Made by a program: the position numbers and the translations under genes. From a virus (Duplodnaviria; Heunggongvirae; Uroviricota; Caudoviricetes), in IMG/VR virus record IMGVR_UViG_2541047946_000018, positions 1 to 38,363 of that record: a stretch of 38,363 nucleotides of DNA; one strand, 5' to 3'. Shown here in pieces: positions 8,601 to 32,030 of this stretch (positions within the stretch are counted from its first letter, which is position 1; each line of letters opens with the position of its first letter). The notes beneath the pieces were generated by a model. It worked only from the letters and a program-made list of their open reading frames with translations. It searched no databases and was not told where the DNA came from.

Positions 8601-9076
8601 CGAACGACAGCGCCGAACGGAATAAACATAGAAATCGCATTGAATGGATCTGCTAATCTCATTGCTACAGAAGAGACTGTACCAGCAAATCCCAAGCCTG
8701 AATTGTATTCCATGTCAGCTCTCTGCTGATCGATTCGATGTTTAATTGCCATTGTTTCTTCAGGCGAACCGGAGTTGATAAACGAATCTGCAAAATCTTC
8801 ATAGCCTTTAATATCTGCTGCATCGTTATCAAATGGGTTATATCCTTCAACCCTGTCAAACTGACTGAAAGGAGCACTGGCAATAAAGCTACCCAGCGTG
8901 TTATCTATACGAAATGCTGCTTGTCTAGACCTTTGAACGCGTTGATCACTGGTAAATGGGTTCACAGCAGAAAGCAAAGAAGGTGTTTCCATATAGAAAT
9001 TACTGTCATCAGGTGCTGCTATTTGCTGAATATCCTCGCCAAGCAACTCTTTAGGATCCTGTTCATATATCGGCAT
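5687..9076 (-). CDS. Internal virion/ejection protein, T7 gp16-like by position and size (1129 aa)
   Basis: Large ORF in the T7-like gene order after the gp15-like gene; coiled-coil-rich centre. Confidence 0.55.
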   Translation of the reverse strand: MPIYEQDPKELLGEDIQQIAAPDDSNFYMETPSLLSAVNPFTSDQRVQRSRQAAFRIDNTLGSFIASAPFSQFDRVEGYNPFDNDAADIKGYEDFADSFINSGSPEETMAIKHRIDQQRADMEYNSGLGFAGTVSSVAMRLADPFNAISMFIPFGAVVRGGRIAETAGRFALANAAGSVASEAALQATQEARSPMESVSNVVVDALVGGILGAGAQLLAGPGAREAVVNSVGNHLRGMDSPQSIGAAQVFNTTLDQEQLAGLGLANKTLSVTPAGRLAQSPSLVSRQINQQLAENNYFFAKNDEGLATFTAVETKIKQYDAMLYKQMEATRDAYQQYSKSVSARGVKRMNFIDFNEAVGMAMRRGDQSDIPEVSQAAARIRPIFETTKARMQELGILPEDIDVVTAKSYLPRIYKFDKILSDRTEFRGRIANWIQGISAKGADKAGQRIERINSLLKTAEESAPRADALASEIAEAEKWSGKKILLMEELDKRNKLISQETDTQARLTRIEKELAETSSEKLQARMMKESSDLKTRLDDIAQAKSELPVYQRHMELLDNPRKYRSELRRLQKRANSTTRLNASRERALKQMEPLSREEAEDAADEIVNKIIGAPSGLVPADIIPERLVGRAGFTKSRTLLIPDERIEDFLESDVNYIMESYLRQVAPEIELTAQFGRKDMGEQIRQVSEEYTRLIKEAKTPKRRAVLEKQREADIRDITAMRDRLLGTYGAPQDPRSFFVRAGRVARNINFLRLLGGMTVSAATDLMRPMMQHGLRKSLGPMVSMLKNMDSVKIATRDLREMAVGLDYVLSTRTKAIADLTDPYSRRSAAERGLNWMTQKFGNWTLMNQWNSALKSWSGMIVQSRILDAARQVSAGGTLSKSEMRKMAQVGINEDVLRRIGEQFGKHGEDMDGLLTGHSHLWDDRFAREIFQSAVLKDVDSVIVTPGVGDTPLFFSKEGWKMITQFKTFIFAQHNRVLVSGIQQGDAAFYLGALGTIALGSMVYMMKQKLSGRDIDYSWNNLVKEGIDRGGMLGWLSEPLNTVENISGGRFGLGAMFGAPPVSRFQSRNAIGALLGPTFDLGGDAATVANGVLNGEFDSQQTHAVRKMLPFQNLWAISPLLNKVEEQMK

Positions 9077-11790: not shown

Positions 11791-11861
11791 CTGGCGTCCG
11801 GATGTAGTGAACCGCCCCGGGAATCCTGGAGACTAAACTTCCTGAGAAAGAGGTAAACAGG

Positions 11862-12188
11862 ATGACTAAAAATACTCGTTTTTCCCCTGAAGTCCGTCAA
11901 CGGGCAGTCCGTATGGTTCTGGAAAGTCAGGGCGAATATGACTCACAATGGGCGACAATTTGTTCCATTGCTCCAAAGATTGGCTGTACGCCGGAGACTC
12001 TGCGTGTCTGGGTTCGCCAGCATGAGCGGGATACCGGGGGCGGTGATGGAGGGCTCACCACCGCTGAACGTCAGCGTCTGAAAGAGCTGGAGCGTGAAAA
12101 TCGTGAACTGCGCCGCAGTAACGATATCCTTCGCCAGGCTTCCGCTTATTTTGCGAAGGCGGAGTTCGACCGCCTCTGGAAAAAATGA
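11862..12188 (+). CDS. IS629 OrfA (IS3-family transposase N-terminal HTH part)
   Basis: [31 protein letters not shown]...; recognised IS629/IS3411-type OrfA; A6 slippery run at its 3' end. Confidence 0.85.
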
Positions 12189-13075
12189 TGCCACTGCTGG
12201 ATAAGCTGCGTGAGCAGTACGGGGTCGGACCGCTATGCAGCGAACTGCATATTGCCCCGTCAACGTATTACCACTGTCAGCAACAGCGACATCATCCGGA
12301 TAAACGCAGTGCCCGTGCGCAGCGCGATGACTGGCTGAAGAAAGAGATACAGCGCGTATACGATGAAAATCACAAGGTATACGGTGTGCGTAAAGTCTGG
12401 CGTCAGTTGTTACGGGAAGGTATCAGAGTGGCCAGATGCACTGTGGCACGTCTCATGGCGGTTATGGGACTTGCCGGTGTTCTCCGGGGTAAAAAGGTCC
12501 GTACGACCATCAGCCGGAAAGCCGTTGCCGCAGGCGACCGCGTAAACCGTCAGTTCGTGGCAGAACGACCTGACCAGCTGTGGGTGGCTGATTTTACTTA
12601 CGTCAGCACATGGCAGGGCTTCGTCTATGTGGCGTTCATCATTGATGTGTTTGCCGGATACATTGTGGGGTGGCGGGTCTCATCGTCCATGGAGACGACA
12701 TTCGTGCTGGATGCACTGGAGCAGGCGTTATGGGCCCGTCGACCGTCCGGCACGGTCCATCACAGTGATAAAGGTTCTCAGTATGTATCGCTGGCCTACA
12801 CACAGCGGCTTAAGGAAGCCGGATTACTGGCATCAACAGGAAGTACAGGCGACTCGTATGACAACGCGATGGCGGAGAGCATCAATGGTCTTTACAAAGC
12901 GGAGGTAATACACCGTAAGAGCTGGAAAAACCGTGCAGAAGTGGAACTGGCCACACTCACGTGGGTGGACTGGTATAACAATCGACGATTGCTGGAAAGG
13001 CTGGGCCATACTCCTCCGGCAGAAGCAGAAAAAGCTTATTATGCTTCCATCGGAAACGATGATCTGGCAGCCTGA
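12185..13075 (+). CDS. IS629 OrfB (transposase catalytic DDE domain)
   Basis: Overlaps orfA in the -1 frame; rve-type integrase core by family knowledge. Confidence 0.85.
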
Positions 13076-13135
13076 GTTCACAGATAAAATACTCTCCAGG
13101 AAACCCGGGGCGGTTCATAGTAGGAACAACAGGCA

Positions 13136-13711
13136 TCAGTAACCTCCTATTTTGAATCGGGAGTCAGAATTCATAAAACCTGAGTTAGATAACATTGGCG
13201 TCCCACCACTAGATGTACTTCCTTTAGAGAACGGACTCCACGTCCCACCAAACATCTGGTACGCACCGTATGCCTTCAGAGGCGCAGTGAGCAATGTTGT
13301 TGCTGCTCCCACATTCCCCTGTTTACGGGCTGAACTGGCTTCTGCTTTATAGTTGGCAGCCTGAACCTGATAACCGTAAGCCTCGCGTTGCGCGTTATTC
13401 ACCGTCGTCAGCGAATCAAGAGCGCCAAACTGGGCAGTGTCGCCAAATATATCCAGCGCGTTACCGGTAGATAAATCGGCGCCGGTCGCCCCCATTGTCG
13501 CCGCTTGAGTACCAAGCCGCTGTCGGGTCTCTCTGCGCCGTTGCTCAGCTTCAGCGTTACCTCTGTTTATTGCATCATTTGCCTGAGCAGTGGCTATATC
13601 TGCGTTCGCTTCTGCAACCTTCGAGACATACTTTCCCTGTTGGTACTGGGTGTATGCCTGAATGCCACTCATGGCGAGCATTGCGCCACCAGCAATAACC
13701 GGATCGCACAT
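13136..13711 (-). CDS. Internal virion protein, T7 gp14-like by position and size (191 aa)
   Basis: Ala/Gln-rich low-complexity protein following the gp13-like gene; stop is 18 bp from the IS right end. Confidence 0.5.
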   Translation of the reverse strand: MCDPVIAGGAMLAMSGIQAYTQYQQGKYVSKVAEANADIATAQANDAINRGNAEAEQRRRETRQRLGTQAATMGATGADLSTGNALDIFGDTAQFGALDSLTTVNNAQREAYGYQVQAANYKAEASSARKQGNVGAATTLLTAPLKAYGAYQMFGGTWSPFSKGSTSSGGTPMLSNSGFMNSDSRFKIGGY

Positions 13712-14175
13712 TATTTTCTCTCCATGTGAAATCTGTGGAAATTAAGACCAAGAGCACCATAAGGCGCGGCTTCTTCAAGCCTGAATCCAAGCCAGTGCAG
13801 CCATGCTTTGGCAACATGGTTTCGCTCGTCGACGTAGTTTTCCAGGCGCGGATAAACTGCCAGCATCTGCTGCAATACAGGTCGGCAGTGGCGAAGAAAT
13901 GTCTTCTGATATTTTTCAATACGGCTGGTCCCGACCAGCCAGGGCGTACCATTGCCACCGATCATTGACGCCGGAGATACGCCAAACATGGTTACCAGTT
14001 CTCCGTTCGCAAATCCTGACCAGGCCATAGTCGCAGTACGCAGACCAACACGCAGCGCATCTTCGGTAGTCATCAGTGATACCGCATACAGTTCGTCAAT
14101 ATCAGCCTGACGAACATCCGGCAAAATCATCTGAAGATGCTCTTCGGTAGCGGGAATAATTTGAACATCGATCAT
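13711..14175 (-). CDS. Virion protein, T7 gp13-like by position (154 aa)
   Basis: Position between the tail tubular B and gp14-like genes; start overlaps the upstream stop. Confidence 0.4.
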   Translation of the reverse strand: MIDVQIIPATEEHLQMILPDVRQADIDELYAVSLMTTEDALRVGLRTATMAWSGFANGELVTMFGVSPASMIGGNGTPWLVGTSRIEKYQKTFLRHCRPVLQQMLAVYPRLENYVDERNHVAKAWLHWLGFRLEEAAPYGALGLNFHRFHMERK

Positions 14176-16646
14176 CAGAATCCCCCAACAGTAAGGCGAG
14201 GAATAACGGCAAGAACAGACAGCGGCAACGGGTCAAGCTGACGGATTTTTACACGCCCGTTTTTGCCCCAGTTACTGTCCAGTTTCACTTCTACTTTTCC
14301 GGTAGCATCATCAACAGGATCATCGTAGAACTCGAATTCACGCTGTGGATATTCGTACCATTTACCGCCAGGCGTAGTCGCCCAGATGCCGCGACTGGCA
14401 TTCACAACCAGAGTAACGGATGGGATCACCTGTTTTTTGTCCAGCAGCGTTTCCTGTCCGTTAATGTTGATATCCAGTGTTTCGAATTCAGCAGTTATTG
14501 GCAGGCCGATGTGCACTACAGCCCCCGGAGATTCCAGCGTGACGGCACCTCCGGAAACCACTTTCTGTGGTTCCACGTTCGCATCAGAGAGAATGTTTAC
14601 GGTCTGGCCTTCAAGATGAGACAGGCCTCCAAATGTCCGGCGCGCCATCTGCCAGTTCGTGGTGGCCACATTCCTGAGGGATGGCGGGACGTTCCTGTTA
14701 ACACGAACCACTACAGCGGTATTACTGGTTACAGAAATAATGTCGCAACGTAATTCTTTTGACACCTCATCGCCAGTATCAGGATCAGTTCCGGTATAAG
14801 GGAACTGTAGTTGCGCGCCGACATCACTACTGGTGAAGTACGCACCACCAGAAACACTGATTGTATATTCCGCGCGGTAATCCCATTCGCCAGAACCACC
14901 AGTGATGATCATCGTTCTGTCAGACGTATTTCTTCCATCATAGCTAAGGCCAGAATCAACAAAGAAAGCATCTTCATCGCTGGTAAATAAACGGCTGGAC
15001 AGTCGCTCGATGTATCTCACTGTTTGCCCGTTAACGGTTCGGTTAACGACGAAATACACCGCATCTTCATTGCCTTCGCTGATACTGCATGTGCTTTCAT
15101 ATTTTCCGGTACTGGATTGTGGTGCCCATGCAAAAACCTGCTGATCACGCAAATAGGTCATCACCAGTAATTTACCGTCATCACGGATGCAGAAGGCGCT
15201 GGAGTAAGGGACTATTGAGAAGCACCAGTCAACAATGCTGTGCTTCTGAAAAAGATGATTGGCAAGGATAGTAAGGTCGTTCCCCTGATAGCCGTCAACA
15301 TCGAATGAGTAGGCGAGATCACGGACAACACTGCCTTTCTCCTGGACGAACAGAGCAATATTCGCCACGGCAATTGGTGGGACATTGCTCGAGCCATTTG
15401 ATCCCTGAGAGCTGAATGCAAATGATGATGGGGTAAGCACTTTGTTCTGGTCGCCAGTGATGACGTACTCACCTCCGGAAGTCAGCGCCACCAGCGAACC
15501 AACATCAATCAGGTGACGGATCTCATTAACCTGACGCCCGGCATAGGTGTAGATAATTCTGTCGTCATCCTGCGTAGGATTGCTTTTGCCAAAATCCTTA
15601 TAATCCCCAGTACGGCTGGCCCAGATAGTCTGAGGGAACGCAGTCGATGCGGCGAAGTAAAGACGTTGTTGATAATAAACAACAGTGCCAGGATAACCAT
15701 TAACACTGTTCCAGGCATATTTAGCCCATTTATAGCTGGCATTATCCTCGCCAACGACCTGCGAAGGGATATAGGAAATCACCTCGGCAGTTGCAGTAGT
15801 GCCGTTTACAGCAGTGATACGGGCAATGCCAAAACCACTGTGCAGATACTCCCACTCAATGCCAGTATCATCATCACCGGATCCGCCCCAGCCATCCCAT
15901 GATGTGCCTTCTGTATGCGAAGGGCGCAAAGTACCTGTTTTGCCTGCTGTAACGGCGCGATAGTAGTTACTGTCTGCACGGCGAATATCGCCAATCGACG
16001 TACTCTTACTGGTTTCCCATACCGGTACTGAATCCACTGCTGGCTGTTCCAGATAGAACAATTTGCCTACCTGCTCCGCGCCAAAAATAGAGGCGCTTGC
16101 CGTTAACGTAATTGTCCCGGTGCTGGCGCTGGCATAAACCGTCACTGACTCGTCAATATTGATATCTTCAAATGGTCCGTTCTTCGTTACCACATCAACC
16201 AGTTGCCAGTTGTCATGCGCATAGCGACGCAACTCTTTCGGCGGGTATGCCGGATGAACCAGCGTAAGCACGTCGGCGCTTTGCGTGAATTTAATTCGGA
16301 ACAGATCGGCTTCAGTATATGGCGTGGAAATTTCATAAATAACATTGCTGCTGTTCAGCACCAACGCACCATCTTTGATAACGCGCATGTACTGGTGTCC
16401 GAACTCCAGAGCATAAGTCTGAACCGTCGAGAACTGGAACGGGATCAGGCGGCATTTCCGATTTGGATATTTGGCGGCACCGACAAAACGCGTACCAGGT
16501 CGATTCTCAACGCCGCCATACTGCCGCACGATAAAGTTATCGCACTTGCGCAATGCCACCTGGTACTTCGCCATGTCAATACGCCCGTACAACGACGGTC
16601 CAATCTCACCACCGGCAAAGCTGGGCTGGATCCAACTGATAGCCAT
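14175..16646 (-). CDS. Tail tubular protein B (T7 gp12-like, 823 aa)
   Basis: Size and position after tail tubular A in the T7-like order. Confidence 0.6.
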   Translation of the reverse strand: MAISWIQPSFAGGEIGPSLYGRIDMAKYQVALRKCDNFIVRQYGGVENRPGTRFVGAAKYPNRKCRLIPFQFSTVQTYALEFGHQYMRVIKDGALVLNSSNVIYEISTPYTEADLFRIKFTQSADVLTLVHPAYPPKELRRYAHDNWQLVDVVTKNGPFEDINIDESVTVYASASTGTITLTASASIFGAEQVGKLFYLEQPAVDSVPVWETSKSTSIGDIRRADSNYYRAVTAGKTGTLRPSHTEGTSWDGWGGSGDDDTGIEWEYLHSGFGIARITAVNGTTATAEVISYIPSQVVGEDNASYKWAKYAWNSVNGYPGTVVYYQQRLYFAASTAFPQTIWASRTGDYKDFGKSNPTQDDDRIIYTYAGRQVNEIRHLIDVGSLVALTSGGEYVITGDQNKVLTPSSFAFSSQGSNGSSNVPPIAVANIALFVQEKGSVVRDLAYSFDVDGYQGNDLTILANHLFQKHSIVDWCFSIVPYSSAFCIRDDGKLLVMTYLRDQQVFAWAPQSSTGKYESTCSISEGNEDAVYFVVNRTVNGQTVRYIERLSSRLFTSDEDAFFVDSGLSYDGRNTSDRTMIITGGSGEWDYRAEYTISVSGGAYFTSSDVGAQLQFPYTGTDPDTGDEVSKELRCDIISVTSNTAVVVRVNRNVPPSLRNVATTNWQMARRTFGGLSHLEGQTVNILSDANVEPQKVVSGGAVTLESPGAVVHIGLPITAEFETLDININGQETLLDKKQVIPSVTLVVNASRGIWATTPGGKWYEYPQREFEFYDDPVDDATGKVEVKLDSNWGKNGRVKIRQLDPLPLSVLAVIPRLTVGGF

Positions 16647-17251
16647 CAGGACAACCTCGCAATGGTAAACTCATCAACCGGTGGCTGTGGTTCCTGTGAT
16701 TCATTCTGGCTATGCGAGCCAGCACTAAGAATCACGCGATTGTACATATTGAGGGCAAACGTACCGAGGTCTGCATTCCCAGTCAGCGCCATGTTAATAG
16801 CTGCCGCAAGACGCCAGGCCAACGCCTCCATAAAAATGGCATCAAACATGTTCACATCTGTAACGCGAGAGACATACTTGAGCCATGCCTGAGGCTGGTC
16901 TGTGTAGATCAACTTTCCTGTTCCGTCGGTGTCTGCACCAACTTCGTACTGAACGCGCATTGCTGCTGTTGGATTGCGTACACCAGGAAGCATAATTTCA
17001 GTAATGCGCAGACAATCGGACGGGTACTGGTATGCGTATTCCCAGTCTGGCGGCGGATTGCTCGTATCTGCAAGCGCCACGCGTTTGGTAGCAAAGTTCC
17101 AGTCAAAATCAGAAAGCACAGCATCACGGCAGGCCTCAAAGTGCAGCGAACATTCCCCCGCTTCCTTGCTGGCTTCCGTCAGGCTGTTAATACTGCGGCT
17201 GTTGCCAATATTGGACAGCGCACGATTGCAGATCTCTACTACAGAGGCCAT
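16646..17251 (-). CDS. Tail tubular protein A (T7 gp11-like, 201 aa)
   Basis: Size and position; hairpin plus GGAG RBS upstream. Confidence 0.55.
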   Translation of the reverse strand: MASVVEICNRALSNIGNSRSINSLTEASKEAGECSLHFEACRDAVLSDFDWNFATKRVALADTSNPPPDWEYAYQYPSDCLRITEIMLPGVRNPTAAMRVQYEVGADTDGTGKLIYTDQPQAWLKYVSRVTDVNMFDAIFMEALAWRLAAAINMALTGNADLGTFALNMYNRVILSAGSHSQNESQEPQPPVDEFTIARLS

Positions 17252-17307
17252 AAGTTTCTATACTCCTGCAATAAAGGGGCCGAAGCCCCTTGTCTCATCC
17301 GCGAGGC

Positions 17308-17652
17308 TTACACGCCCAGTTCTTTACGCTTATCTGCGATCTTCTCGCGGAGCGTTTCTGCTTTGGCGTTATGGTGTGGCTTCTCGTTAAAGAGCAATTC
17401 GTACTCTTCACGGAGCTTATCCAGTTCACCATCATCTGACACATCGTTGATGATTTTGGTGCTGGTTGCTGCCATAGACACCTTTCCTGCTACCTTTGCT
17501 TTTGCCTGTCTGGCTGCATCGTTAACAGGTTCCAGTGCGCTACCAGGCTCACCTTCGTATTCGATTTCTGCCCCCTCCGGCCACAGAGTGTTATGGATAT
17601 GAGAGAGGCGCAGAACGCGGTATCTTGGTTTCTCACCTGACATCAATATCAC
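17308..17652 (-). CDS. Hypothetical virion-module protein (114 aa)
   Basis: Start overlaps the upstream stop; coding on the same strand within the structural operon. Confidence 0.45.
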   Translation of the reverse strand: MILMSGEKPRYRVLRLSHIHNTLWPEGAEIEYEGEPGSALEPVNDAARQAKAKVAGKVSMAATSTKIINDVSDDGELDKLREEYELLFNEKPHHNAKAETLREKIADKRKELGV

Positions 17653-17653
17653 C

Positions 17654-18091
17654 TTAACCAGTTACTTTTGAGCGGATCGGATACGGCGTATTGGCATCAA
17701 CATCAAGATTGATACCCGCAGTGAATTTGCCGGCCGTTAGTGGGCCAGTTGCGACGGAGTAGTTAACACGCAGATATCGCTGAACACCGGCAGGCACCTT
17801 TGCAGAAACAACTCGTTTACCTGCTGTCAGGGTAGCCTTTGCCAGTGCGCCACTATCATAAATAGTGGACCATGAGCTGTTATTCTCACTCGTCTGCAAC
17901 TGGATGTTTACAGTTGCCTCACCACTTGCCGTGGCGGCTTCGTTAACCAGCACCCAAAACTCAAGCGGATAACCCACGCCGATATCGCGACGGTTTCCAT
18001 CAATTGGACCGAGATCGATTACGTCAGTAGAAGCCGCGGTATTCGTAACCGCCTGAGCTTCGGAGAACATCAACAGTTTGTCGGTGATCAT
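17654..18091 (-). CDS. Hypothetical capsid-associated protein (145 aa)
   Basis: Strong RBS GGAGAAAGAAG; preceded by a hairpin (GTGGGTC/GACCCAC) just after the capsid gene. Confidence 0.5.
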   Translation of the reverse strand: MITDKLLMFSEAQAVTNTAASTDVIDLGPIDGNRRDIGVGYPLEFWVLVNEAATASGEATVNIQLQTSENNSSWSTIYDSGALAKATLTAGKRVVSAKVPAGVQRYLRVNYSVATGPLTAGKFTAGINLDVDANTPYPIRSKVTG

Positions 18092-18142
18092 CTTCTTTCT
18101 CCATTAGTGGGTCTGTTACGACCCACAGGTTAATAACAGGCG

Positions 18143-19135
18143 TTACACCACGCGGGCTTCTGTTTCCAGAAGCGCATCAGTTTCACGGATTGGTACACCA
18201 CAGAATGAAGTCCACCACTCGCCTTCTGTCTCTTTTACGCTGATCGCCAGAGATGTTTTCTCCAGAGATTGCAGATCAAGAGCCTGGCCTACAGTGCGGT
18301 TCATGTAGAACACCGGGCGACCCATGCCACGATTTGGAATGCGATGCAGTGCTTTAACCATCAACTTCGCAATATTTGCGGCAGAGGAAGGTTCTGAAAG
18401 ATTGCTGACATCGATGTTTGCAATGCGAACAACATAACGCCAGTCACGCAGAGCAAGTCCGTTGTCCCATTTGTAATGGGTACGGTAGCCTTCGTACTTG
18501 CCGCCATTAGCATCTTCCAGTGTCACCTGGCCTTTATCTTCCATCTGAATGCCAGCCTTCTGCCCTTTCGGGAAGATGCCATGCACTGTGTTTTCGCCCC
18601 ACACCACTAACCAGATTGAAGTGTTATCTGTACCCGTGCCACCAGCATCAATGATGTTCTGAGCATTACCCGCAGACAGGCTGGAATAGCGGGAGGACAG
18701 TCCCATAAACTGCTGAGGGTTAACGCTGGAATCACCGTAAAACAGCGTCTGCGCCATCGCCTGATTCATCGCTTCAATAAATGCTCGGTCTTCAGACAGG
18801 CGGAATTCGGCAGTATTACCGTTCAGATCAGCCAGAGACTTATCGACTTCAGCATAGGTTTCCAGCATGCCAATGGAATCAGTGACCTGCACCGTTGTTG
18901 ATTTGCTCGGTTGTACGCCATAGTTCAGCAAACGCCAGGTAGCGGAAGGCAAACCAGAACGAATGGTGGTTCGGTGTCCGGTAGGAAGGTTTCCTTCAAC
19001 AAAAGGCATATCCTGAAGGATTGGGTTGGTTTGACTGAGAAGCTCGATAATCTTATCGACTTTCCCGTTTGGATCGACGCGCTTACCCCAGTCAGCCAGC
19101 GTTAGCGCAGTTAAGCCTTTAACAGCCATTGTCAT
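18143..19135 (-). CDS. Major capsid protein (T7 gp10-like size, 330 aa)
   Basis: Follows the scaffold gene; size and position. Confidence 0.65.
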   Translation of the reverse strand: MTMAVKGLTALTLADWGKRVDPNGKVDKIIELLSQTNPILQDMPFVEGNLPTGHRTTIRSGLPSATWRLLNYGVQPSKSTTVQVTDSIGMLETYAEVDKSLADLNGNTAEFRLSEDRAFIEAMNQAMAQTLFYGDSSVNPQQFMGLSSRYSSLSAGNAQNIIDAGGTGTDNTSIWLVVWGENTVHGIFPKGQKAGIQMEDKGQVTLEDANGGKYEGYRTHYKWDNGLALRDWRYVVRIANIDVSNLSEPSSAANIAKLMVKALHRIPNRGMGRPVFYMNRTVGQALDLQSLEKTSLAISVKETEGEWWTSFCGVPIRETDALLETEARVV

Positions 19136-19143
19136 TTCCTCTC

Positions 19144-19845
19144 TTATTTGCCATAGAGCACTTCGGCCGCACTACGCTGGCCTTCATTACCACCGGTGAC
19201 CATGCCATCTTCAGACATCGCCTTTCCGATTTTCACGAACGTTTTGACCAGATCAGGGTGATTACCCAGCCCGGTGGTGTTCAGATATTCTTTGAGTTCA
19301 GGTGTCCCGAACTGGTCGAGCGCACGCTGTGCGGCGCTAAGGTTAGAAATCAACTTGTCGCCACCGATTTCTTTGTCAGCTTTTACATCCGCAGCCCACT
19401 GCTCGGTTGTTTTCTGCCAGGCTTCTGCCTGGCGCTGCTGAACACCTGCCAGAATCTTCGGATAAGCATCAACCAGCTTTTGCGCTTGCTCGTTGGTCAG
19501 GTTAAGTTCTCGCGCCACCGGCTCGAATTCCTTCAACGCTTCTGTATCCAGCTCTACGCCTTCGGCAGCCTGAAACTCGTACTTCTCCGGCGCACCATCC
19601 GGTTTATCGCCGTCCTTTTTTTCACCCTGCTTATCGCTTTCAGGCTTTTTGTCATCAGCAGGTTTATCGCCATCAGCAACAGGTTGCGGCTTATCACCTT
19701 CTTGTTGTGATGGATCACCAACTGGAGCAGGGTTATCACCTGCAGGCGCTGACGGTTCTGACGCAGCCGGAGCTGCTCCACCATCGACTGGTTGCTCATT
19801 GCAAAGACGGCGATACAGCAAACGCTCAAATAAATTCATGATCAC
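19144..19845 (-). CDS. Scaffolding protein (acidic, 233 aa)
   Basis: Highly acidic, Pro/Ala/Asp/Lys-rich protein between portal and capsid genes. Confidence 0.6.
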   Translation of the reverse strand: MIMNLFERLLYRRLCNEQPVDGGAAPAASEPSAPAGDNPAPVGDPSQQEGDKPQPVADGDKPADDKKPESDKQGEKKDGDKPDGAPEKYEFQAAEGVELDTEALKEFEPVARELNLTNEQAQKLVDAYPKILAGVQQRQAEAWQKTTEQWAADVKADKEIGGDKLISNLSAAQRALDQFGTPELKEYLNTTGLGNHPDLVKTFVKIGKAMSEDGMVTGGNEGQRSAAEVLYGK

Positions 19846-20138
19846 TCCTGTTCACTGGCCTCTTTGGCCATCTTCAAATACTGTTCAGGGCAATGCGCCA
19901 TAACGCGCTGAAACAGTTCCAGCGCCAGATTGCATTGCCCCTCATTAAATGCCATTGCCATAGCGTCCATCGGTGAGATAGCGGAAAACACACGGCCTTT
20001 CTCCAGCACCGACCAGACAACGCGACGCCCCTGTTCACTGCTCATGACAAAGCGAATGTCATCAATTTCACGCTGTGCCATGTCACGTTGCTTACGGGCG
20101 TTTTCTTCTTTCAGTTGATCATCTTCGTAATCTGTCAT
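19842..20138 (-). CDS. Hypothetical protein (98 aa) between portal and scaffold genes
   Basis: ATGA-type overlaps on both sides. Confidence 0.45.
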   Translation of the reverse strand: MTDYEDDQLKEENARKQRDMAQREIDDIRFVMSSEQGRRVVWSVLEKGRVFSAISPMDAMAMAFNEGQCNLALELFQRVMAHCPEQYLKMAKEASEQE

Positions 20139-21814
20139 TGTGATTGCCCACCCTGACCACTAACTGCATTCGCCATAGCTGACAAAACACTCGGATCCGA
20201 AGTTTTAGCTTCGCTTAGCGTCTTGGCACCCTGTGCCGCCGCCATCCCCATCGCCATCATTTGTTGCTGCTGTTGTTGCTGTGCCCGTTGCTGGCGAGCC
20301 TGCTCAACCTGTTCCTGCGGAACAATGACGGTTGGAGACACTCCGGACATATCAGCGAATGCATCGATCGCCTGATCAACGTTGAGTTTGTCGAGAGCTT
20401 CTGGTTTCGCTTGCGCAAGTTGACCAATGAAGTTAACCGTGGACGCCAGACTGGACAGGCCGATAGACTTCTGCGCCTGAGCCATGACGGAAATGTATTC
20501 GACCTTCAGGGGCATGCCTTCCATCGCGTCAGGCGGTGGCGGCAGCATGTTTTTGCGCACCATCATCGAGAAAGCGCGGTCAATGAGAGGATTAAGACAT
20601 TCGTCGTTCAGACGCTCCAGAACCGGCCCCAACATCAGAAGTTTTTCTTCTTTCATTTCGATCACCGCTTCAACAGGCATCGAGCGGGTATTGATGTTCT
20701 GCAACATCATGAACAGATCGACAAAGTAGGCGCTGTTAATGATTTGACGAGTGTCCTGAATGTCTGCCACCAAATCTGCTGTACTGGGGTTAACCAGATA
20801 AGCAGGCCTGAAGCCATCCTGACCAGTAATCTGATCGATATACGTGATGTCGCCAGGAAGAAGGGAGGCGCGCTGATTCTTGAGGGAAGTCGGAGCAACC
20901 ATCGGCGGATTGGTGGCTTTATCAATCAACTGCGACTTGCGCTTCTGGAGAAGCTGCAATGCCTTAACAGGTCCAAGCGCCAGCATACCCGGGCATGATG
21001 ATCCATAAACATCTTCGCCGTTAACTTCCCAGCGCGGAGCCATAATTGGAAACTCATCGAATCCGGACTCACGCAACAACTTGTCGTTATCGCCACCAAC
21101 CTCGTAATAAACCGATTTGAATGGCTTGTTCTTGCTATCCAGCTTCGATGTATCGCGGTCAATGTTCGGGTAAACCGAATGCATCACTTCGATCCACTTC
21201 TCGTAGGTGCCGCTTTCCCACATGCTTTTTACGGATTCGCTGACGTTATTTAGCCCGAACTCCTGAACAAGCTGACGAACAGTCATAGAGAACTTGCGAA
21301 AACAGGTGTCAACACTGCCACGAGGTGAGTTAGCCAGGTAGTAACTGCCTATCGGGAATGGCATTGTGCGAATGATGTCCTCGTCATCCTCCAGCACTGC
21401 CATTGCACCAGTGCTGTATGTGCCGAGGCTTCCGTATAACTGCGGAAGAGACTGGTAGAGATTCGACTTATTGAACATATCGTTCATGCGGTTCTGAACT
21501 GCCTCAAGCCACAACTTAACAGGGCCATAATCCATCATTTCAGGATCTGGCGTAGCCAGGCGAAACCACGGACGCGCGGGGCTTGTGATGCCTGACATCA
21601 TGCCGCTGGCGAGAGTGCGCGCCGCCATAGTCCCGGTCGAATCAATAATGCGTGTATTGCGCCGATCGTTACGGTTGGCCTCAGAAGTCAGAAAGCGGGA
21701 ACCACGCGGGTTGATGTAATCACTCAACTCGCGCCAGTGCGGCTCGAACGACTGACGCTCGCTTTCAAGTTGTGCGAACTGTTTGTTCAATCGCTCTTTA
21801 GTTGTTTCCGCCAT
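20135..21814 (-). CDS. Portal (head-to-tail connector) protein, T7 gp8-like (559 aa)
   Basis: C-terminal QQRAQQQQQQQMMAMGMAAAQGA tract resembling the T7 gp8 C-terminus; size and position. Confidence 0.75.
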   Translation of the reverse strand: MAETTKERLNKQFAQLESERQSFEPHWRELSDYINPRGSRFLTSEANRNDRRNTRIIDSTGTMAARTLASGMMSGITSPARPWFRLATPDPEMMDYGPVKLWLEAVQNRMNDMFNKSNLYQSLPQLYGSLGTYSTGAMAVLEDDEDIIRTMPFPIGSYYLANSPRGSVDTCFRKFSMTVRQLVQEFGLNNVSESVKSMWESGTYEKWIEVMHSVYPNIDRDTSKLDSKNKPFKSVYYEVGGDNDKLLRESGFDEFPIMAPRWEVNGEDVYGSSCPGMLALGPVKALQLLQKRKSQLIDKATNPPMVAPTSLKNQRASLLPGDITYIDQITGQDGFRPAYLVNPSTADLVADIQDTRQIINSAYFVDLFMMLQNINTRSMPVEAVIEMKEEKLLMLGPVLERLNDECLNPLIDRAFSMMVRKNMLPPPPDAMEGMPLKVEYISVMAQAQKSIGLSSLASTVNFIGQLAQAKPEALDKLNVDQAIDAFADMSGVSPTVIVPQEQVEQARQQRAQQQQQQQMMAMGMAAAQGAKTLSEAKTSDPSVLSAMANAVSGQGGQSQ

Positions 21815-21828
21815 TTCAATGACTCCGG

Positions 21829-22035
21829 TTACTGACCAAGCAGCGTTTTACCGCTGGTATTAGCGGTTGATGTGTCGCCCTGAGAACCGGTAAGCAGCGT
21901 AGAACTACGACCAGCAGCAGCGCGACGGCGACGTGTTTCTTCGTCGCGGGCATCAACAACGGCGGCATCCTGCTCCTGTGGTGCTGCCTGAACTTCTGGT
22001 GTTGCAGGCACTGATGGTGAGCTACCCATGCACAT
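21829..22035 (-). CDS. Small disordered virion protein (T7 gp6.7/7.3-like composition)
   Basis: 68-aa Ala/Gln/Thr-rich ORF with GGAG RBS immediately upstream of the portal gene; the alternative frame 21816..22055 looks like junk. Confidence 0.45.
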   Translation of the reverse strand: MCMGSSPSVPATPEVQAAPQEQDAAVVDARDEETRRRRAAAGRSSTLLTGSQGDTSTANTSGKTLLGQ

Positions 22036-22124
22036 ATCAATGACTCCGTACGCAATTAAATTATTACCAATTTAACCACATATGATTTATTTATCGTAGA
22101 AGGTTGACATTTAACGCGTGAATT

Positions 22125-22141
22125 ATTACCTTTCGGGTAAC
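22125..22141. promoter_or_regulatory. Operator site ATTACCTTTCGGGTAAC with adjacent TTGACA -35 hexamer (22104..22109), AACCACATA element (22074..22082) and half-site (22063..22068)
   Basis: Same cassette architecture as at 1128..1196, 2590..2646 and 29686..29764. Confidence 0.55.
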
Positions 22142-22220
22142 CAAAGAGCTCATTCCGGTTACTAACCTGACTGGCTTGTCGTTAAATTAAACAGGTGGAG
22201 TGAGCTTTTATTTTGAGCAG

Positions 22221-22360
22221 TACGGCGTATGGCACATGCGCCGATAGCGGTCTGGATACGTTTAAGGGGCACCCTCCCTTGCTCGGGCAAACGAACCAGG
22301 TAGCCGGAATGTGCAAGTCGAGCGGTTTTATTCCGCGCACGGGGATTCACCATCCCGGCG
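22221..22360 (+). repeat. Conserved non-coding element, copy B (leader upstream of tRNA-Arg), homologous to 2724..2870
   Basis: Same ordered sequence blocks as copy A; GC-rich; no ORF of 60 aa or more on the plus strand. Confidence 0.4.
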
Positions 22361-22462
22361 ATTCGGTGTGACGCCTCGGAAGAGACGAGGGTACAACGAT
22401 GAGAGCATTTATGGAGCCGCGACAAAGTGTGGCGCCTTAACAGGCTAAGTGCTCTCAGCGTT

Positions 22463-22539
22463 GTGGCATTAGCTCAGTTGGACAGAGCAACCGCCTTCTA
22501 AGCGGTTGGTCGCAGGTTCGAATCCTGCATGCCACGCCA
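22463..22539 (+). tRNA. tRNA-Arg (anticodon UCU), argU-like
   Basis: Cloverleaf: acceptor GTGGCAT/ATGCCAC, D-arm TAGCTCAGTTGGACAGAGC, anticodon stem ACCGC/GCGGT with loop CTTCTAA, T-arm GCAGGTTCGAATCCTGC, discriminator G plus CCA; close to E. coli argU. Confidence 0.9.
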
Positions 22540-22582
22540 GAATCACGCCTAAGGACCGTGATGCCAGAAGTTCCAGGTGCTT

Positions 22583-22627
22583 GGCGGTGATGGTTTCCCT
22601 TGAAGGACTATCACCGCCCTTTTTACA
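22583..22627 (+). terminator. Intrinsic terminator downstream of the tRNA
   Basis: GGCGGTGAT...ATCACCGCC stem followed by CTTTTT. Confidence 0.55.
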
Positions 22628-22702
22628 GCAGGACGCCATTGCGATGACTTCATGCTGTAAACCCGTACAGCCACGGAAGGCATAACTCATTGCTTCCAGT
22701 TC

Positions 22703-22727
22703 GCCCGGTTCGCCGGGCATTTTTTTG
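22703..22727 (+). terminator. Intrinsic terminator
   Basis: GCCCGG-ttcg-CCGGGC hairpin followed by ATTTTTTT. Confidence 0.7.
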
Positions 22728-22741
22728 CTTGATGACCGCAA

Positions 22742-22758
22742 ATTACCTTAAAGGTATA
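22742..22758. promoter_or_regulatory. Operator site ATTACCTTAAAGGTATA overlapping a TATAAT hexamer (22755..22760)
   Basis: Palindrome immediately upstream of the moron ORF. Confidence 0.55.
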
Positions 22759-22761
22759 ATC

Positions 22762-23580
22762 ATGAAAAACTTCAAGGTAATTAGCATGTTTGAATCGTTT
22801 AAAGAGCTGTTTTTATCTACTGCCAATACTGCCGTGAATCGAGCCAAAAACCCTGTGCTTGGTGCTTTTGTTATGTCCTGGTGCGCCTTCAACTGGAAAT
22901 CAATTCTTTATCTATTTTTTAGCAAATCAAACATAATAGATAAAATTTCATATATCTCAGATAACAGCACATGGAAAACTGTTATGTTTTATCCATGCTT
23001 ATCTGTAATTGCTATCTGCTGCCTATTACCATGGGTAAACAATATCATTAACGTATGGCAAGCAAAGCCTCTTGATAATAATGACTCAATCGAAAATCAC
23101 CTGAAGGCAAGAAAAATCCAGCGTGAAACCAGACTGCAGAGGTTATTGGCTAAAAAAGATGTTACATACGACAAAGTTAAGACTGGCGCGGAAAAAGACA
23201 TCCAAGAGATGAAAGAAGAGATTATTCGATCAAAGAATAGTATGGGGGAATTGACTGCTGAGTTGAAAGCTAAAGATGACGAATTGAGATCCGCCAGTGC
23301 TCAGTTAGCAGCTCTAAATCATTCATTAAAAGAGATATCGGAAACTCTTGGAAGAATGAATGAGGCATATAAGACCCTCCAAAATGATTTCGACGAATAC
23401 AAACTCAAATACCCTGAAAAATCTCAAATAAAAAGTCTTGCACTTGGCAACGGCCAAACAATTAGCAACTTTTTGGAGCAACACAACTTATCCGGATTAA
23501 AATCTGGTAAGCCAGACGTTTTTAATAACTTTGGTGTTCTATCTGGATTATCAGGTTTCGAGGATAAAAATAAAGACTAA
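22762..23580 (+). CDS. AT-rich moron: membrane protein with two predicted TM helices and a long C-terminal coiled coil; candidate superinfection-exclusion or abortive-infection factor
   Basis: Start ATG 22762 or 22786 (both have RBS); hydrophobic segments VLGAFVMSWCAFNWKSILYLFF and VMFYPCLSVIAICCLLPWV; low GC; stop codon overlaps the TerL stop tail-to-tail. Confidence 0.6.
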   Translation: MKNFKVISMFESFKELFLSTANTAVNRAKNPVLGAFVMSWCAFNWKSILYLFFSKSNIIDKISYISDNSTWKTVMFYPCLSVIAICCLLPWVNNIINVWQAKPLDNNDSIENHLKARKIQRETRLQRLLAKKDVTYDKVKTGAEKDIQEMKEEIIRSKNSMGELTAELKAKDDELRSASAQLAALNHSLKEISETLGRMNEAYKTLQNDFDEYKLKYPEKSQIKSLALGNGQTISNFLEQHNLSGLKSGKPDVFNNFGVLSGLSGFEDKNKD

Positions 23581-25052
23581 GCATATGGATCGTACTCGGT
23601 AAGCGCCTTGCCTTGCTGGTTCTGCTGCCCGGGAAGTCGCAGGCGCTTCGACACCGGGAAAGCAAACGTCAGCAGCAGCGCATCGCCTTTACCCGGCGAA
23701 CGCCCAAGTCGCTCTTTGATATCTTCCTTCGGTTCGATAACGATTTTACCGTCCACTCGAACTTTGTACTCTGCCGCCGACAGGTCGTCTGCAGTTTCCT
23801 GGTCATCCAGCATGCCGCCCAGCCTCAGCCATGTCTTACATGAGTTGAACATCTCCCCACGCTTGTTGAGCATCTGCGGGTCAGTAGACGCGCCACCGAA
23901 CGGAACAAGTTGCCATGTACGACCCCAGCCGTCACCGATTGACTTCAGACCAGTTCCGTAACCGAAGTCGATGAACACTGCGTCAGCCTGGTACTGGTCT
24001 TCAAAGTCAGCGATACGCTTCGCCATAATCAGATCGTCAGTGGTCTTGTTGCCAGTCCACAGCACCTTACTGTGCAGCCCCTGCCGCAGGTATATCACAG
24101 CGTCATCAACGCCTGAGTATGCCGGGTCAACGCCGATTATCACCGGAGCATGTGCAACCTGCGCAGCGGTGACCACCCGTTTCATTGCCTCGTCAGTAAG
24201 TCCGGTAGGGATAAACTGCAATTCAGATGCATCCGGGAATATGCCGCGCACACGGATTTTAACGAAGTCGCTGTCTTCCCCGTAGTCATCAACCCATTTC
24301 TGCAACTGCTGTTTGTTGGTGCCTTCCACCGTCCGGCTGTCAATCTGCGCAGTTTTCCAGCGGTGTTTATATTTGCGGAAACATTCGCGGAAACGTCCGG
24401 TATTACGCGTCGGGTTTCCGAACGCCACCCAGATAATCTCAGTGTCTTCGTCCGTTAGCGCACCCTCGGCAACTTCCCACACCAGATCCGCAATGTTCGA
24501 CGCTTCATCGAATACCACGATGATGCGTTTGCGCTCGTTGTGTAGTCCGGCGAATGCCTCAGTGTTGTGCTCAGACCAGGGTATTGCGTCAGCTCGCCAC
24601 CGCTTGTCGTGTCCAGGATCATTGCTGTACATCGCGGTAGCGGTACAGGTAAACCAGTCTTTCGTGATAGCAAGGTTCGACCACTTGATAATTTCCGGCC
24701 AGGTCTTCGTTCGTAGCTGGTTGTCGGTGTTGGCGGTCACCACAACCTTACAATCCTCGCAAGTGGACATGCCCCAGTTGATCAGCATTGAGATGAATGC
24801 GGATTTACCAATACCGTGACCCGAAGCGCGTGCCAGCATAAGCGGCTGATAGCGCGTCTCTGGATTCTGCAGGTGATCACGTATCTCTCGGAACGCATCA
24901 GCCTGCCACTGACGTGGACCGGTGGCATGTGCCAGTTCAGTCCCATCTTCCCCCCACGGGAACGCATAGAGGGCATAGCCAAGCGGATCGTGAGTGAACC
25001 CTGCAATATCCTCGATTAACTGCTCTTCAGGAGATAACGCTGTATCTGTCAC
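23577..25052 (-). CDS. Terminase large subunit
   Basis: P-loop SGHGIGKS and C-terminal nuclease-like Asp motifs; ATGA overlap with the upstream TerS gene. Confidence 0.8.
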   Translation of the reverse strand: MTDTALSPEEQLIEDIAGFTHDPLGYALYAFPWGEDGTELAHATGPRQWQADAFREIRDHLQNPETRYQPLMLARASGHGIGKSAFISMLINWGMSTCEDCKVVVTANTDNQLRTKTWPEIIKWSNLAITKDWFTCTATAMYSNDPGHDKRWRADAIPWSEHNTEAFAGLHNERKRIIVVFDEASNIADLVWEVAEGALTDEDTEIIWVAFGNPTRNTGRFRECFRKYKHRWKTAQIDSRTVEGTNKQQLQKWVDDYGEDSDFVKIRVRGIFPDASELQFIPTGLTDEAMKRVVTAAQVAHAPVIIGVDPAYSGVDDAVIYLRQGLHSKVLWTGNKTTDDLIMAKRIADFEDQYQADAVFIDFGYGTGLKSIGDGWGRTWQLVPFGGASTDPQMLNKRGEMFNSCKTWLRLGGMLDDQETADDLSAAEYKVRVDGKIVIEPKEDIKERLGRSPGKGDALLLTFAFPVSKRLRLPGQQNQQGKALTEYDPYA

Positions 25053-25645
25053 TGATTACCATCCTGACGTTCTTTGAGTCGCTTCCTGGCTGCTGCTATG
25101 CGATCAGCAATTGTCACATTCACATTAACATCCAGACGTTCTTTGAATGCGTTGACATCAACATGCTTACCAATCAGCTCAAGGTTCTTCACCTTGTCAG
25201 GCCATTTAATTTTTTTGAGGATTGTCTCTATTGAATCCTCGTTCATGTTCATGATGGTCGATGACAGATCAAAGCCACTAAGCGTAGTGCGCCAGATTTT
25301 CGGCCACTCACGGATTGGTTTAAGGCTCCCATCGTCGTTGAGGATGTCGATCACGTCCATCTGGTCGATCTCCACCAGGCGCATGAGAACGTAATCAGCA
25401 CTGACACGCATTCGTTTGTTGCGCTCCTCCATCAACTCGGCAATCCGTTTCTGAATGCGTTCATCGCGCATCATGACACTGGCTTTAACTGCCGCTGTAT
25501 TTGGGGAGAATCCTGCGTTAATCGCAGCCTGAGTCTGGTTTTCAGGCGTTTTGATGTATGACTGGCAATAAGCCTCCTGCATTGCTGTGAGCGGCTTAAA
25601 TTGCGTTGATTTGCGTTTATAGGTTTTAGGTTCAGCAGGCATCAT
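25049..25645 (-). CDS. Terminase small subunit
   Basis: Position immediately upstream of TerL; start taken at ATG 25645 (the track ORF extends to 25723 through an upstream terminator and operator). Confidence 0.55.
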   Translation of the reverse strand: MMPAEPKTYKRKSTQFKPLTAMQEAYCQSYIKTPENQTQAAINAGFSPNTAAVKASVMMRDERIQKRIAELMEERNKRMRVSADYVLMRLVEIDQMDVIDILNDDGSLKPIREWPKIWRTTLSGFDLSSTIMNMNEDSIETILKKIKWPDKVKNLELIGKHVDVNAFKERLDVNVNVTIADRIAAARKRLKERQDGNQ

Positions 25646-25661
25646 AACCACCGTGGTAATT

Positions 25662-25678
25662 GTTACCGTTGTGGTAAT
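25662..25678. promoter_or_regulatory. Operator site GTTACCGTTGTGGTAAT just upstream of the TerS start, with extra half-site GGTAAT at 25655..25660
   Basis: Consensus TTACC-N5-GGTAA palindrome. Confidence 0.5.
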
Positions 25679-25687
25679 AATACCATG

Positions 25688-25714
25688 CAAAATAAAGCCG
25701 CCATAGTTGGCGGC
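25688..25714 (-). terminator. Intrinsic terminator on the minus strand between the nin-like operon and TerS
   Basis: GCCGCC-aactat-GGCGGC hairpin followed by TTTATTTTG on the minus strand. Confidence 0.5.
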
Positions 25715-25763
25715 AGTATTCAAAATCCATCAAATTCATCATGCATAATCTACTCGTGACATG

Positions 25764-26111
25764 TCACACTATTAATTTCGTTTCATGCCAGCCTTTAGTC
25801 ACCCAGCATTGCGAGTCACCATTACACGGGCATGAATTAACTGGAACTCTCTCGCCGCACTTACCGCAACGTTTTCTGCTGATCGATTTTATACGCCCGC
25901 GCACACGTGCATCATCCTGGCGGATCAGCAGCGCGATGTACTCGGCCATTTCATAGGGATCGCGACCAGGGCGCCGGGCGGCGCAGTTCCGCGCCAGCAT
26001 TTCCTGCTCCTGCTTATCCAGCACCAGTTCAATTTTGCGCTCACCGGCGGCGGACTGCCGAGCGCGCTGCGCGGCTTTGCGTTCTGCGGGGGATTTAGCC
26101 ACGAATCGCAC
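25764..26111 (-). CDS. Hypothetical protein with C-terminal Cys cluster (CGKCG...CPCNG), possible zinc-binding regulator
   Basis: Start uncertain (GTG 26111 or GTG 26102, coupled to the stop of the upstream small ORF). Confidence 0.4.
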   Translation of the reverse strand: MRFVAKSPAERKAAQRARQSAAGERKIELVLDKQEQEMLARNCAARRPGRDPYEMAEYIALLIRQDDARVRGRIKSISRKRCGKCGERVPVNSCPCNGDSQCWVTKGWHETKLIV

Positions 26112-28149: not shown

Positions 28150-28150
28150 A

Positions 28151-31995: not shown

Positions 31996-32030
31996 AGCTA
32001 TTGCCTGATATTTATTTCAGATAATAAATA

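Follow-up and report, generated by a model that had tools for sequence, protein, structure and literature searches.

The window analysed here is a stretch of viral DNA of 38,363 nucleotides (positions 1 to 38,363 of IMG/VR record IMGVR_UViG_2541047946_000018), whose segment 13136-25645 had been read in a preliminary description as an unusual chimera, namely a T7-like structural module inside a lambdoid, integrase-bearing temperate prophage. Our analysis leaves little doubt that the window represents a temperate short-tailed prophage of the phiV10/epsilon15 type (genus Uetakevirus), belonging to the sublineage of Escherichia phage EC.W1-9, that the T7-like character of its tail and ejection proteins goes back to ancient common descent, and that this copy is probably defective. 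An unusual chimera is therefore not what is found, since the whole window corresponds to a known type of phage and its link to T7 is both ancient and published.

The identity of the element is clearest at the level of DNA. In a megablast search with the segment 13136-25645, 13 phage genomes covered at least 80% of it, with identities of 97–98% to phiV10, TL-2011b, phiv142-3, ZX5, PAS61, the O157 typing phages 9 and 10, HEMP4 and EC.W1-9, 82% to Enterobacter phage Tyrion and 77% to epsilon15. The alignment of the window with phiV10 is collinear. The two are 97–98% identical across 92% of the segment 13136-25645 and across 76% of positions 25600-38363, the early region, of which about 76% aligns with phiV10 and PAS61 at 96–98% identity. 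In the left arm (729-13200) EC.W1-9 alone reaches 98% identity, and it is also the closest isolate overall (PP445227). The near-identity to phiV10 together with the left arm matching EC.W1-9 identifies a Uetakevirus prophage of the EC.W1-9 sublineage. In addition, the proteins from the small terminase subunit to a protein of 191 amino acids (aa) are 95–100% identical to the phiV10 products when each is compared with its counterpart by BLASTP, which confirms that the open reading frames (ORFs) are real genes.

The signature head and tail proteins of Uetakevirus are present, that is, the GP7, Bbp16 and Bbp19 families and an adaptor and a nozzle that are 86–88% identical to epsilon15 gp11 and gp12. 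As regards the temperate trait, there is a tyrosine integrase gene whose DNA is 98.4% identical to phiV10 int, the attachment site and the host flanks lying beyond the window. For a close relative, experiments in the ZX5 paper on genus and lysogeny (PMC9782041) demonstrated temperate growth, with integration at the 3' end of guaA. Compared with phiV10, epsilon15 and EC.W1-9, gene order and content agree throughout, and integrase, repressor region and replication genes are shared. The window differs from phiV10 and epsilon15 in two insertions of the IS3 family of insertion sequences (IS), in the lack of the gp10 staple gene, in a cassette of 915-, 1129- and 283-aa ejection proteins that replaces gp15, gp16 and gp17, in a different moron between the terminase and portal genes, in a gene for a NinI-like phosphatase in place of p32, and in the distal part of the tailspike. 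EC.W1-9 has two of these features in common with the window, namely the ejection cassette (at 99% identity) and the missing gp10.

Such prophages are common. The module, represented by the segment from the homologue of phiV10 p12 over gp10 to the adaptor, is carried by 518 of the 5,426 complete E. coli genomes, which contradicts the earlier statement that phages of this kind are uncommon in enterobacteria. At least 80% of window positions 1-25000 is contained in 53 complete E. coli genomes in RefSeq (best identity 98.5%, none identical), and close homologues of the adaptor and of a 233-aa protein encoded between portal and capsid are found in Salmonella, Citrobacter, Enterobacter, Klebsiella, Shigella, Serratia, Proteus, Yersinia and other genera of the Enterobacterales.

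The structural genes form a continuous late operon on the minus strand, in which the ORF sizes, and from the small terminase subunit to the 191-aa protein also the order, are exactly those listed in the preliminary description. In detail, the small terminase subunit TerS (224 aa, 25049..25723; Pfam PF03592 Terminase_2, 104 bits; phrog_51) is 99.6% identical to phiV10 p01, and the end at 25645 given earlier fits a shorter TerS start of about 198 aa, as in epsilon15. It is followed by the large subunit TerL (491 aa, 23577..25052; phrog_2; 98.8% identical to phiV10 p02), a portal of the T7 gp8 family (559 aa, 20135..21814; Pfam PF12236 Head-tail_con, 625 bits; solved homologue 8ck0), a small Bbp19-like protein (98 aa, 19842..20138; Pfam PF25181, 54 bits), and, between portal and capsid, a 233-aa scaffold-like protein (19144..19845; phrog_458, 'protease'). 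The major capsid protein (MCP; 330 aa, 18143..19135; Pfam PF20911 GP7, 495 bits) is predicted to have an HK97 fold of the BPP-1/epsilon15 type, and downstream of it lie the genes for a Bbp16-type capsid cement protein (145 aa, 17654..18091; Pfam PF21190, 166 bits) and for a 114-aa homologue of epsilon15 gp9 and phiV10 p12 (17308..17652; phrog_590; 100% identical to p12). The tail genes encode an adaptor or tubular tail protein A of the T7 gp11 type (201 aa, 16646..17251; assigned by hhalign and Foldseek) and a nozzle or tubular tail protein B of the T7 gp12 type (823 aa, 14175..16646; PDB 8ck1_A 'Tail Nozzle', 724 bits, and hhalign). Next come internal virion protein (IVP) A, which is gp13-like (154 aa, 13711..14175; phrog_308, the family of T7 gp13, and hhalign), and IVP-B, which is gp14-like (191 aa, 13136..13711; Pfam PF24072 T7_gp14, 32.6 bits with a cut-off of 27, and hhalign). 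Pfam gave no family for the adaptor, the nozzle, TerL or the tailspike, nor for the 154-aa, 904-aa or 283-aa proteins.

Beyond this point the operon is interrupted. An IS3-family element of 1310 bp on the plus strand (11808..13117; orfA 11862-12188, orfB 12185-13075; Pfam HTH_Tnp_1 and rve) is flanked by a TAG target duplication, as read at its junctions against the uninterrupted EC.W1-9, and is 100% identical to copies annotated as 'IS3 family transposase' in E. coli genomes. The insertion point follows codon 6 of the gene at the gp15 position, for an ejection protein with a lysozyme domain (9076..11807, minus strand; phrog_1044, 1293 bits), which is 915 aa long when intact, as in EC.W1-9; codons 1-6 (13119-13136) are thereby parted from the rest. 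The protein of 904 aa previously listed as a gene product is thus an artefact of the insertion, being the remnant (9076-11790) read from an internal GTG at 11790. Further downstream on the same strand follow the genes for IVP-D of the T7 gp16 family (1129 aa, 5687..9076; phrog_342, 779 bits) and, directly behind it, for a 283-aa protein conserved in EC.W1-9 (4834..5685; phrog_6118, 666 bits), which matched none of the T7, P22 structural or tailspike families by hhalign and no PADLOC model. The tailspike gene (135..1076, minus strand; phrog_1640, and phrog_8649 over residues 1-298 of 743) is truncated, because the end of a second, identical and inverted IS copy, cut by the window edge (1..183, minus strand; in reverse complement 100% identical to 11808-11990), interrupts it after residue 297, and the ORF stops 16 codons inside the IS, while the full-length profile of the family has about 743 positions. 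Over about 220–240 N-terminal residues the tailspike is 76% identical to phiV10 p25 and 70% to epsilon15 gp20. The segment between the two IS copies has the same orientation as in EC.W1-9. The 904-aa, 1129-aa and tailspike ORFs, which had been counted into the segment 13136-25645, do exist and lie outside it, at 9076-11790, 5687-9076 and 135-1076.

With the tailspike truncated and the gene at the gp15 position split, the prophage copy is probably defective. One could argue that the same phiV10-type prophage is still functional, the IS being tolerated, the internal GTG being used and the tailspike being completed beyond the IS or supplied otherwise. Indeed, the remnant keeps 904 of 915 residues with a GTG start, and EC.W1-9 demonstrates that a layout lacking gp10 and using the alternative ejectosome is viable. 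We nevertheless regard a functional copy as unlikely, since the receptor-binding and enzymatic part of the tailspike is uncoupled by the interruption after residue 297 of about 743, the 915-aa gene has lost its ATGA translational coupling with the gene upstream, and the interruption of essential virion genes by two insertions is typical of a decaying prophage.

The relationship to T7 cannot be seen in pairwise comparisons. When all 16 structural ORFs were compared with T7 and P22 proteins by BLASTP, no pair was significant, that of portal and gp8 included, so that profiles and folds were needed. For hhalign, window-side alignments were built from nine diverse phages of the epsilon15 group (the window, epsilon15, Carin1, YA3, BPP-1, Soumapaz, vB_E332, pelagiphage Skadi-10 and a Vibrio phage) and compared with targets from five Autographiviridae (T7, gh-1, SP6, phiKMV and P-SSP7) and three phages of the P22 group (P22, Sf6 and APSE-1). 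The portal matched T7 gp8 with P=98.0% (E=2.7e-13, 433 columns) as opposed to 0.9% for the P22 portal, and both proteins cross-match reciprocally in PHROG (phrog_332 and phrog_449). The resemblance of the portal C-terminus to gp8 suggested earlier is not borne out pairwise (26.7% over 131 aa, E=0.82, not significant) and holds at the level of profiles, i.e. for PF12236 and hhalign. The nozzle matched T7 gp12 (P=96.9%, E=1.8e-10, 510 columns) with no signal for P22 gp10, the 154-aa protein T7 gp13 (P=97.8%, E=7.9e-13, 139 columns), the 191-aa protein T7 gp14 (P=94.9%, E=4.5e-8, 171 columns) and the 1129-aa protein T7 gp16 (P=96.9%, E=1.3e-10, 333 columns). For the tailspike, the proposed similarity of its N-terminal domain to T7 gp17 was found as well (P=98.0%, E=2.1e-13, 147 columns; none for the N-terminus of P22 gp9), and the two proteins have phrog_1640, 8460, 27277 and 2710 in common.

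The weakest of these links is that between the adaptor and T7 gp11 (P=85.8%, E=5.4e-6, 183 columns). An AlphaFold2 (AF2) model of the adaptor with a predicted local distance difference test (pLDDT) score of 87 was matched by Foldseek to the Carin1 connector 8ck1_E (TM score 0.83), then to the LME-1, PhiM1 and cyanophage adaptors and to T7 gp11 (7box; E=7e-6, TM score 0.57), as compared to E=0.66 for P22 gp4. The identity of 8ck1 was taken from its description in Foldseek and from annotation in GenBank.

The T7-type character of portal, tail and ejection apparatus is hence real but remote. Identities within the aligned parts of the T7-homologous regions amount to about 11–15%, which points towards a deep common ancestry of podovirus tails and not to a recent chimera. 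This relationship is not novel, as it was published in 2016. Hardies et al. (PMC4819975) related epsilon15 gp11 and gp12 to T7's A and B tubular tail proteins, gp13 and gp14 to IVP-A and IVP-B, and gp17 to IVP-D; among the podovirus groups they obtained a strong nozzle match for the pair of epsilon15 and T7 only, they did not find a homologue of IVP-C, and they grouped the epsilon15 terminase and capsid with those of siphoviruses (PMC4819975). Each of these points is reproduced by the present analysis. The RefSeq record of epsilon15 already cites T7 gp11 for epsilon15 gp11.

A module thus qualifies as T7-like only in part: this holds for the counterparts of gp8, gp11, gp12, gp13, gp14, gp16 and the gp17 N-terminus, and it does not hold for capsid, TerL, gp15 and gp9. 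The gene order is the same as in T7 and other Autographiviridae for portal, scaffold-like protein, capsid, adaptor, nozzle and the four ejection proteins, and phiKMV gp36 and SP6 gp36 are annotated with a lysozyme domain on the protein at the gp15 position, as in the window. The claim that the order follows T7 is accordingly right from the portal to the gp16-like gene; it fails for the terminase genes, which lie upstream of the portal gene whereas T7 genes 18 and 19 come after the fibre gene, and for the extra head genes. The Autographiviridae further differ in being virulent, with all genes on one strand and with a phage RNA polymerase, whereas the window has genes on both strands and is temperate with integrase, repressor and antirepressor, and its capsid comes from another HK97 lineage with a cement protein. 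The reported lack of a phage RNA polymerase was confirmed, as tblastn with the T7 and phiKMV enzymes gave nothing below E=1 within the window, while the positive control worked.

Could an Autographiviridae structural module nevertheless have been joined recently to a lambdoid temperate backbone? The synteny with T7 from portal to gp16-like gene, the gp17-type N-terminus of the tailspike, a lambda P homologue and a NinI-like gene in the early region, and the many short early-region segments common to Stx and other lambdoid phages would all fit such an event. It is very improbable all the same and in our opinion already effectively refuted: no pairwise BLASTP match to T7 is significant and the homology appears in profiles and folds only, capsid and terminase are not of the T7 type, and the same module and backbone make up a long-established phage group found in the 518 E. 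coli genomes. In addition, tblastn with the nozzle finds 221 phage records, which belong to the epsilon15/BPP-1/pelagiphage group, with no autographivirus among the 40 matches listed.

P22 and Sf6 resemble the window in that they are temperate podoviruses of enterobacteria whose tailspikes are directed at the O antigen and which possess an antirepressor as well as a related large terminase, and they were placed in the same broad 'transient tail' homology group (PMC4819975). That the window might be a P22-like (Lederbergvirus) prophage with superficially T7-like structural genes, for which its headful-type terminase genes upstream of the portal gene and the match of TerL to P22 TerL (P=95%) could be quoted, is scarcely credible, since the profiles of P22 portal, gp4, gp10, gp14, gp7, gp20, gp16 and gp9 N-terminus gave no signal (all below 6%, as were the non-cognate pairs), Foldseek places T7 gp11 far ahead of P22 gp4 for the adaptor, and the 25 megablast matches listed include no P22-like phage and consist of phiV10/epsilon15-type phages (from Escherichia, Salmonella, Klebsiella and Enterobacter) and unrelated Synechococcus records. 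The profile comparison of T7 against P22 families, suggested in the preliminary description as a check, consequently decides for T7 as far as tail and ejection proteins are concerned; the best matches are neither, being the non-T7 families of epsilon15 and BPP-1 (Pfam GP7, Bbp16 and Bbp19, and the structures of Carin1 and BPP-1), which is an outcome that the preliminary description itself had named as refuting its reading.

Indeed, BPP-1 from Bordetella and Carin1 from Cobetia have the same structural gene order as the Uetakevirus-type window, which contains homologues of Bbp16 and Bbp19, and they provide the best structural templates (MCP 3j4u, 433 bits; portal 8ck0, 601 bits; nozzle 8ck1_A, 724 bits; connector 8ck1_E, TM score 0.83). 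They differ in their hosts, in their early regions and in having one giant protein of about 2,000 aa or more at the IVP-D position. The marine Cobetia phage Carin1 (8ck0/8ck1/8cjz) offers the closest solved portal, connector and nozzle, and is among the closest for the capsid. The epsilon15-type module is widely spread, occurring apart from Carin1 in phages of Pelagibacter, Xanthomonas, Bordetella, Caulobacter and Liberibacter.

In the head, the kinship lies elsewhere than in the tail. Judged by its profile, TerL is nearer the P22/Sf6 type (P22 TerL, P=95.3%) than the T7 type (gp19, P=27%). The capsid protein matches the BPP-1 MCP (3j4u, 433 bits), Carin1 (8cjz, 294 bits) and epsilon15 gp7 (3j40, 290 bits) in PDB, and is 43% identical to epsilon15 gp7 and closer to the BPP-1 MCP; neither T7 gp10 nor the coat protein of P22 gave a signal with it in hhalign. 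The genes for the 98-aa Bbp19-like protein, the 145-aa Bbp16-like cement protein and the 114-aa protein are extra head genes absent from T7.

The 233-aa protein gave no hhalign signal to the T7 gp9 scaffold. Its family is labelled 'peptidase/protease' in thousands of database entries. P86, A121 and G162 are the only residues that do not vary among nine diverse homologues, so that no catalytic set is apparent, its profile finds no protease in PDB, and Pfam has no match for it. An N-terminal region of about 85 residues is disordered and rich in Pro, Ala, Glu, Asp and Lys, and the remainder is all-helical in an AF2 model, whose pLDDT of 45 is too poor for a fold search. Taken together, these features suggest that it is probably a mis-annotated scaffolding protein, and the label 'scaffold' used in the preliminary description appears more plausible than that of a protease.

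The gene for the 'capsid staple' gp10 of epsilon15 (p13 in phiV10; 324 bp) is precisely missing, window position 17251 being aligned with phiV10 position 8458 and 17259 with 8133, which leaves a junction at 17252..17258; the Bbp16-type cement gene is retained. The same layout is found in the isolated phage EC.W1-9, which shows that an arrangement lacking gp10 is a viable variant, and also in some E. coli prophages, which form a minority: in about 83 of the 518 genomes the segment from p12 to the adaptor is not fully covered, and several of those listed show exactly the gp10 gap (75% coverage in two pieces). The staple is characteristic of epsilon15 and is not shown to define Uetakevirus.

The distal ejection proteins deserve separate consideration. 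The lysozyme domain of the protein at the gp15 position comprises residues 236-388 and matches PDB 9vvp_L and 7q47, and its N-terminal 505 aa are 43% identical to epsilon15 gp15. No hhalign signal was obtained for the whole protein or its N- or C-terminal part with T7 gp15, gp16 and gp14, P22 gp20 and gp16, or epsilon15 gp16 and gp17, and BLASTP against the proteins at the gp15 position of phiKMV and SP6 was not significant. The 1129-aa protein matches epsilon15 gp17 by hhalign (P=91.4%); its match to phrog_342 covers profile positions 192-1227, from which it follows that it lacks the N-terminal transglycosylase domain. Its relatives are found in EC.W1-9 (99.6%), Klebsiella phage ST512-KPC3phi13.3 (92%), small Vibrio podophages (40%) and TL-2011b (36%), and, at a distance of about 23% identity by tblastn, among the internal virion proteins of Autographiviridae and pelagiphages. 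With its 36% identity, the cassette of TL-2011b represents a third variant.

It is tempting to speculate that the sublineage sharing the 1129-aa protein (the window, EC.W1-9 and the Klebsiella phage) might have swapped its whole distal ejection cassette within a phiV10-type backbone of 97–98% identity, while lacking the gp10 staple and keeping the BPP-1-type capsid and cement protein, and that both changes might be functionally linked; we put this forward tentatively, as somewhat doubtful. In the literature searched we found no description of a cassette swap combined with the absence of gp10. If such a link were true, these phages would constitute a natural system for the study of modularity in ejectosome and capsid decoration. 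In any case the phiV10 group comprises at least two interchangeable ejection-protein cassettes as well as heads with and without gp10, which may be of interest to phage engineers. Relatives of phiV10 serve as reporter and typing phages for O157.

Based on these homologies and on published work on epsilon15, BPP-1, Carin1 and T7, the working of an intact phage of this type may be pictured as follows. The P22/Sf6-like TerL and the Terminase_2 small subunit would pack DNA into a head with a BPP-1-type HK97-fold capsid, built with the help of the 233-aa scaffold-like protein and strengthened by the Bbp16-type cement protein. The gp8-family portal would bear a gp11-type adaptor ring and a gp12-type nozzle, to which tailspikes attach via their gp17-type N-terminal domain. 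At infection, an internal core of the gp13-like, the gp14-like, the lysozyme-bearing and the gp16-family protein would be ejected and bridge the cell envelope. All genes would be transcribed by the host RNA polymerase under the control of the phage repressor, the antirepressor and a small late regulator, and lysogeny would be established through the tyrosine integrase.

There are however several points that weigh against parts of this interpretation. For the gene split by the IS, translation could still start at the internal GTG (11790), so that its defect is not proven, and the rest of the tailspike may sit beyond the window, across the IS. As the window contains neither the segment for lysis and O-antigen modification nor the attachment sites, it does not allow the completeness of the prophage to be judged. 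Given the lack of similarity to T7 gp15, the assignment of the lysozyme-bearing protein to the gp15 position depends on position, size and the lysozyme domain, and that of the 233-aa protein to scaffolds on the absence of a conserved catalytic set and on an all-helical model of low confidence (pLDDT 45), where the databases speak of a peptidase. Finally, the roles in assembly and ejection are inferred from homology, and expression and particle formation are not evident from the sequence.

The significance of these results is mainly one of correct annotation, since the window contains a common and named type of prophage whose deep link to T7 is already in the literature. We would advise annotating it as an IS-disrupted, probably defective Uetakevirus-like prophage, and the label 'peptidase/protease' on the 233-aa protein looks unfounded.

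The early region exhibits lambda-like mosaicism, with segments common to hundreds of Stx, P22-like and other phages, many from Salmonella among them, yet it is the standard backbone of phiV10. Its immunity region (31765..32734; Pfam HTH_3; phrog_35; annotation of phiV10 p40 and p41) consists of a Cro-like ORF (31765-31995, minus strand) and a divergent helix-turn-helix (HTH) repressor (32150-32734, plus strand), in which, unlike in lambda, no peptidase domain was found. Replication genes on the minus strand encode a DnaT-like initiator (30583-31398; Pfam DnaT and HTH_36), in which the window also differs from lambda, and a homologue of lambda P (29801-30601; PF06992 Phage_lambda_P, 191 bits). 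On the plus strand are found a PD-(D/E)XK exonuclease and RecT (33339..35098; Pfam DUF3799 and RecT) and a NinI-like Ser/Thr phosphatase (36325-37104; phrog_246), the latter beside the integrase gene, in a place occupied in phiV10 by the small DUF1382 gene p32. The region also carries a DNA methyltransferase. The tyrosine integrase has an Arm-DNA-binding domain (37107..38363, minus strand; Pfam Arm-DNA-bind_3, Phage_int_M and Phage_integrase). No match to the antiterminator families N and Q was obtained with the ORFs scanned, which did not include every small ORF. The description of regulation and replication as lambdoid is therefore appropriate for the lambda P homologue, the repressor/Cro-like pair, RecT and the NinI-like gene, and less so for the DnaT-like initiator and the unmatched N and Q; that of an integrase-bearing temperate phage agrees with the presence of integrase, HTH repressor and antirepressor.

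The antirepressor of the Ant/Bro type is encoded apart from the early region (2868..3605, plus strand; phrog_130 and other Ant families), and two paralogous phrog_1651 ORFs (1554-2165, minus strand; 4049-4561, plus strand) flank the antirepressor region, in the interval that separates the tailspike gene from the ejection cassette. A transcriptional regulator (25764..26111, minus strand; phrog_536, 182 bits) homologous to epsilon15 gp49 and phiV10 p55, which is a candidate late regulator, is encoded a short way upstream of the terminase genes. A scan of 21700-26300 for promoters and terminators gave counts no higher than in shuffled sequences and is thus uninformative on late transcription.

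The moron between the terminase and portal genes (22690..23580, plus strand; phrog_4780, 458 bits) is AT-rich and absent from phiV10, where the alignment breaks at 22726-23575, and replaces p03. Its PADLOC matches to DndD, LmuB and JetC (12–21 bits) were dismissed as coiled-coil noise. A sigma-70-like site is located beside it at 22732-22760, the number of such sites in the region being not above chance. Adjacent to the moron, ARAGORN predicts a tRNA-Arg (TCT) at 22463..22539 on the plus strand, and a tRNA-Arg is annotated at the same place in phiv142-3 and the O157 typing phages.

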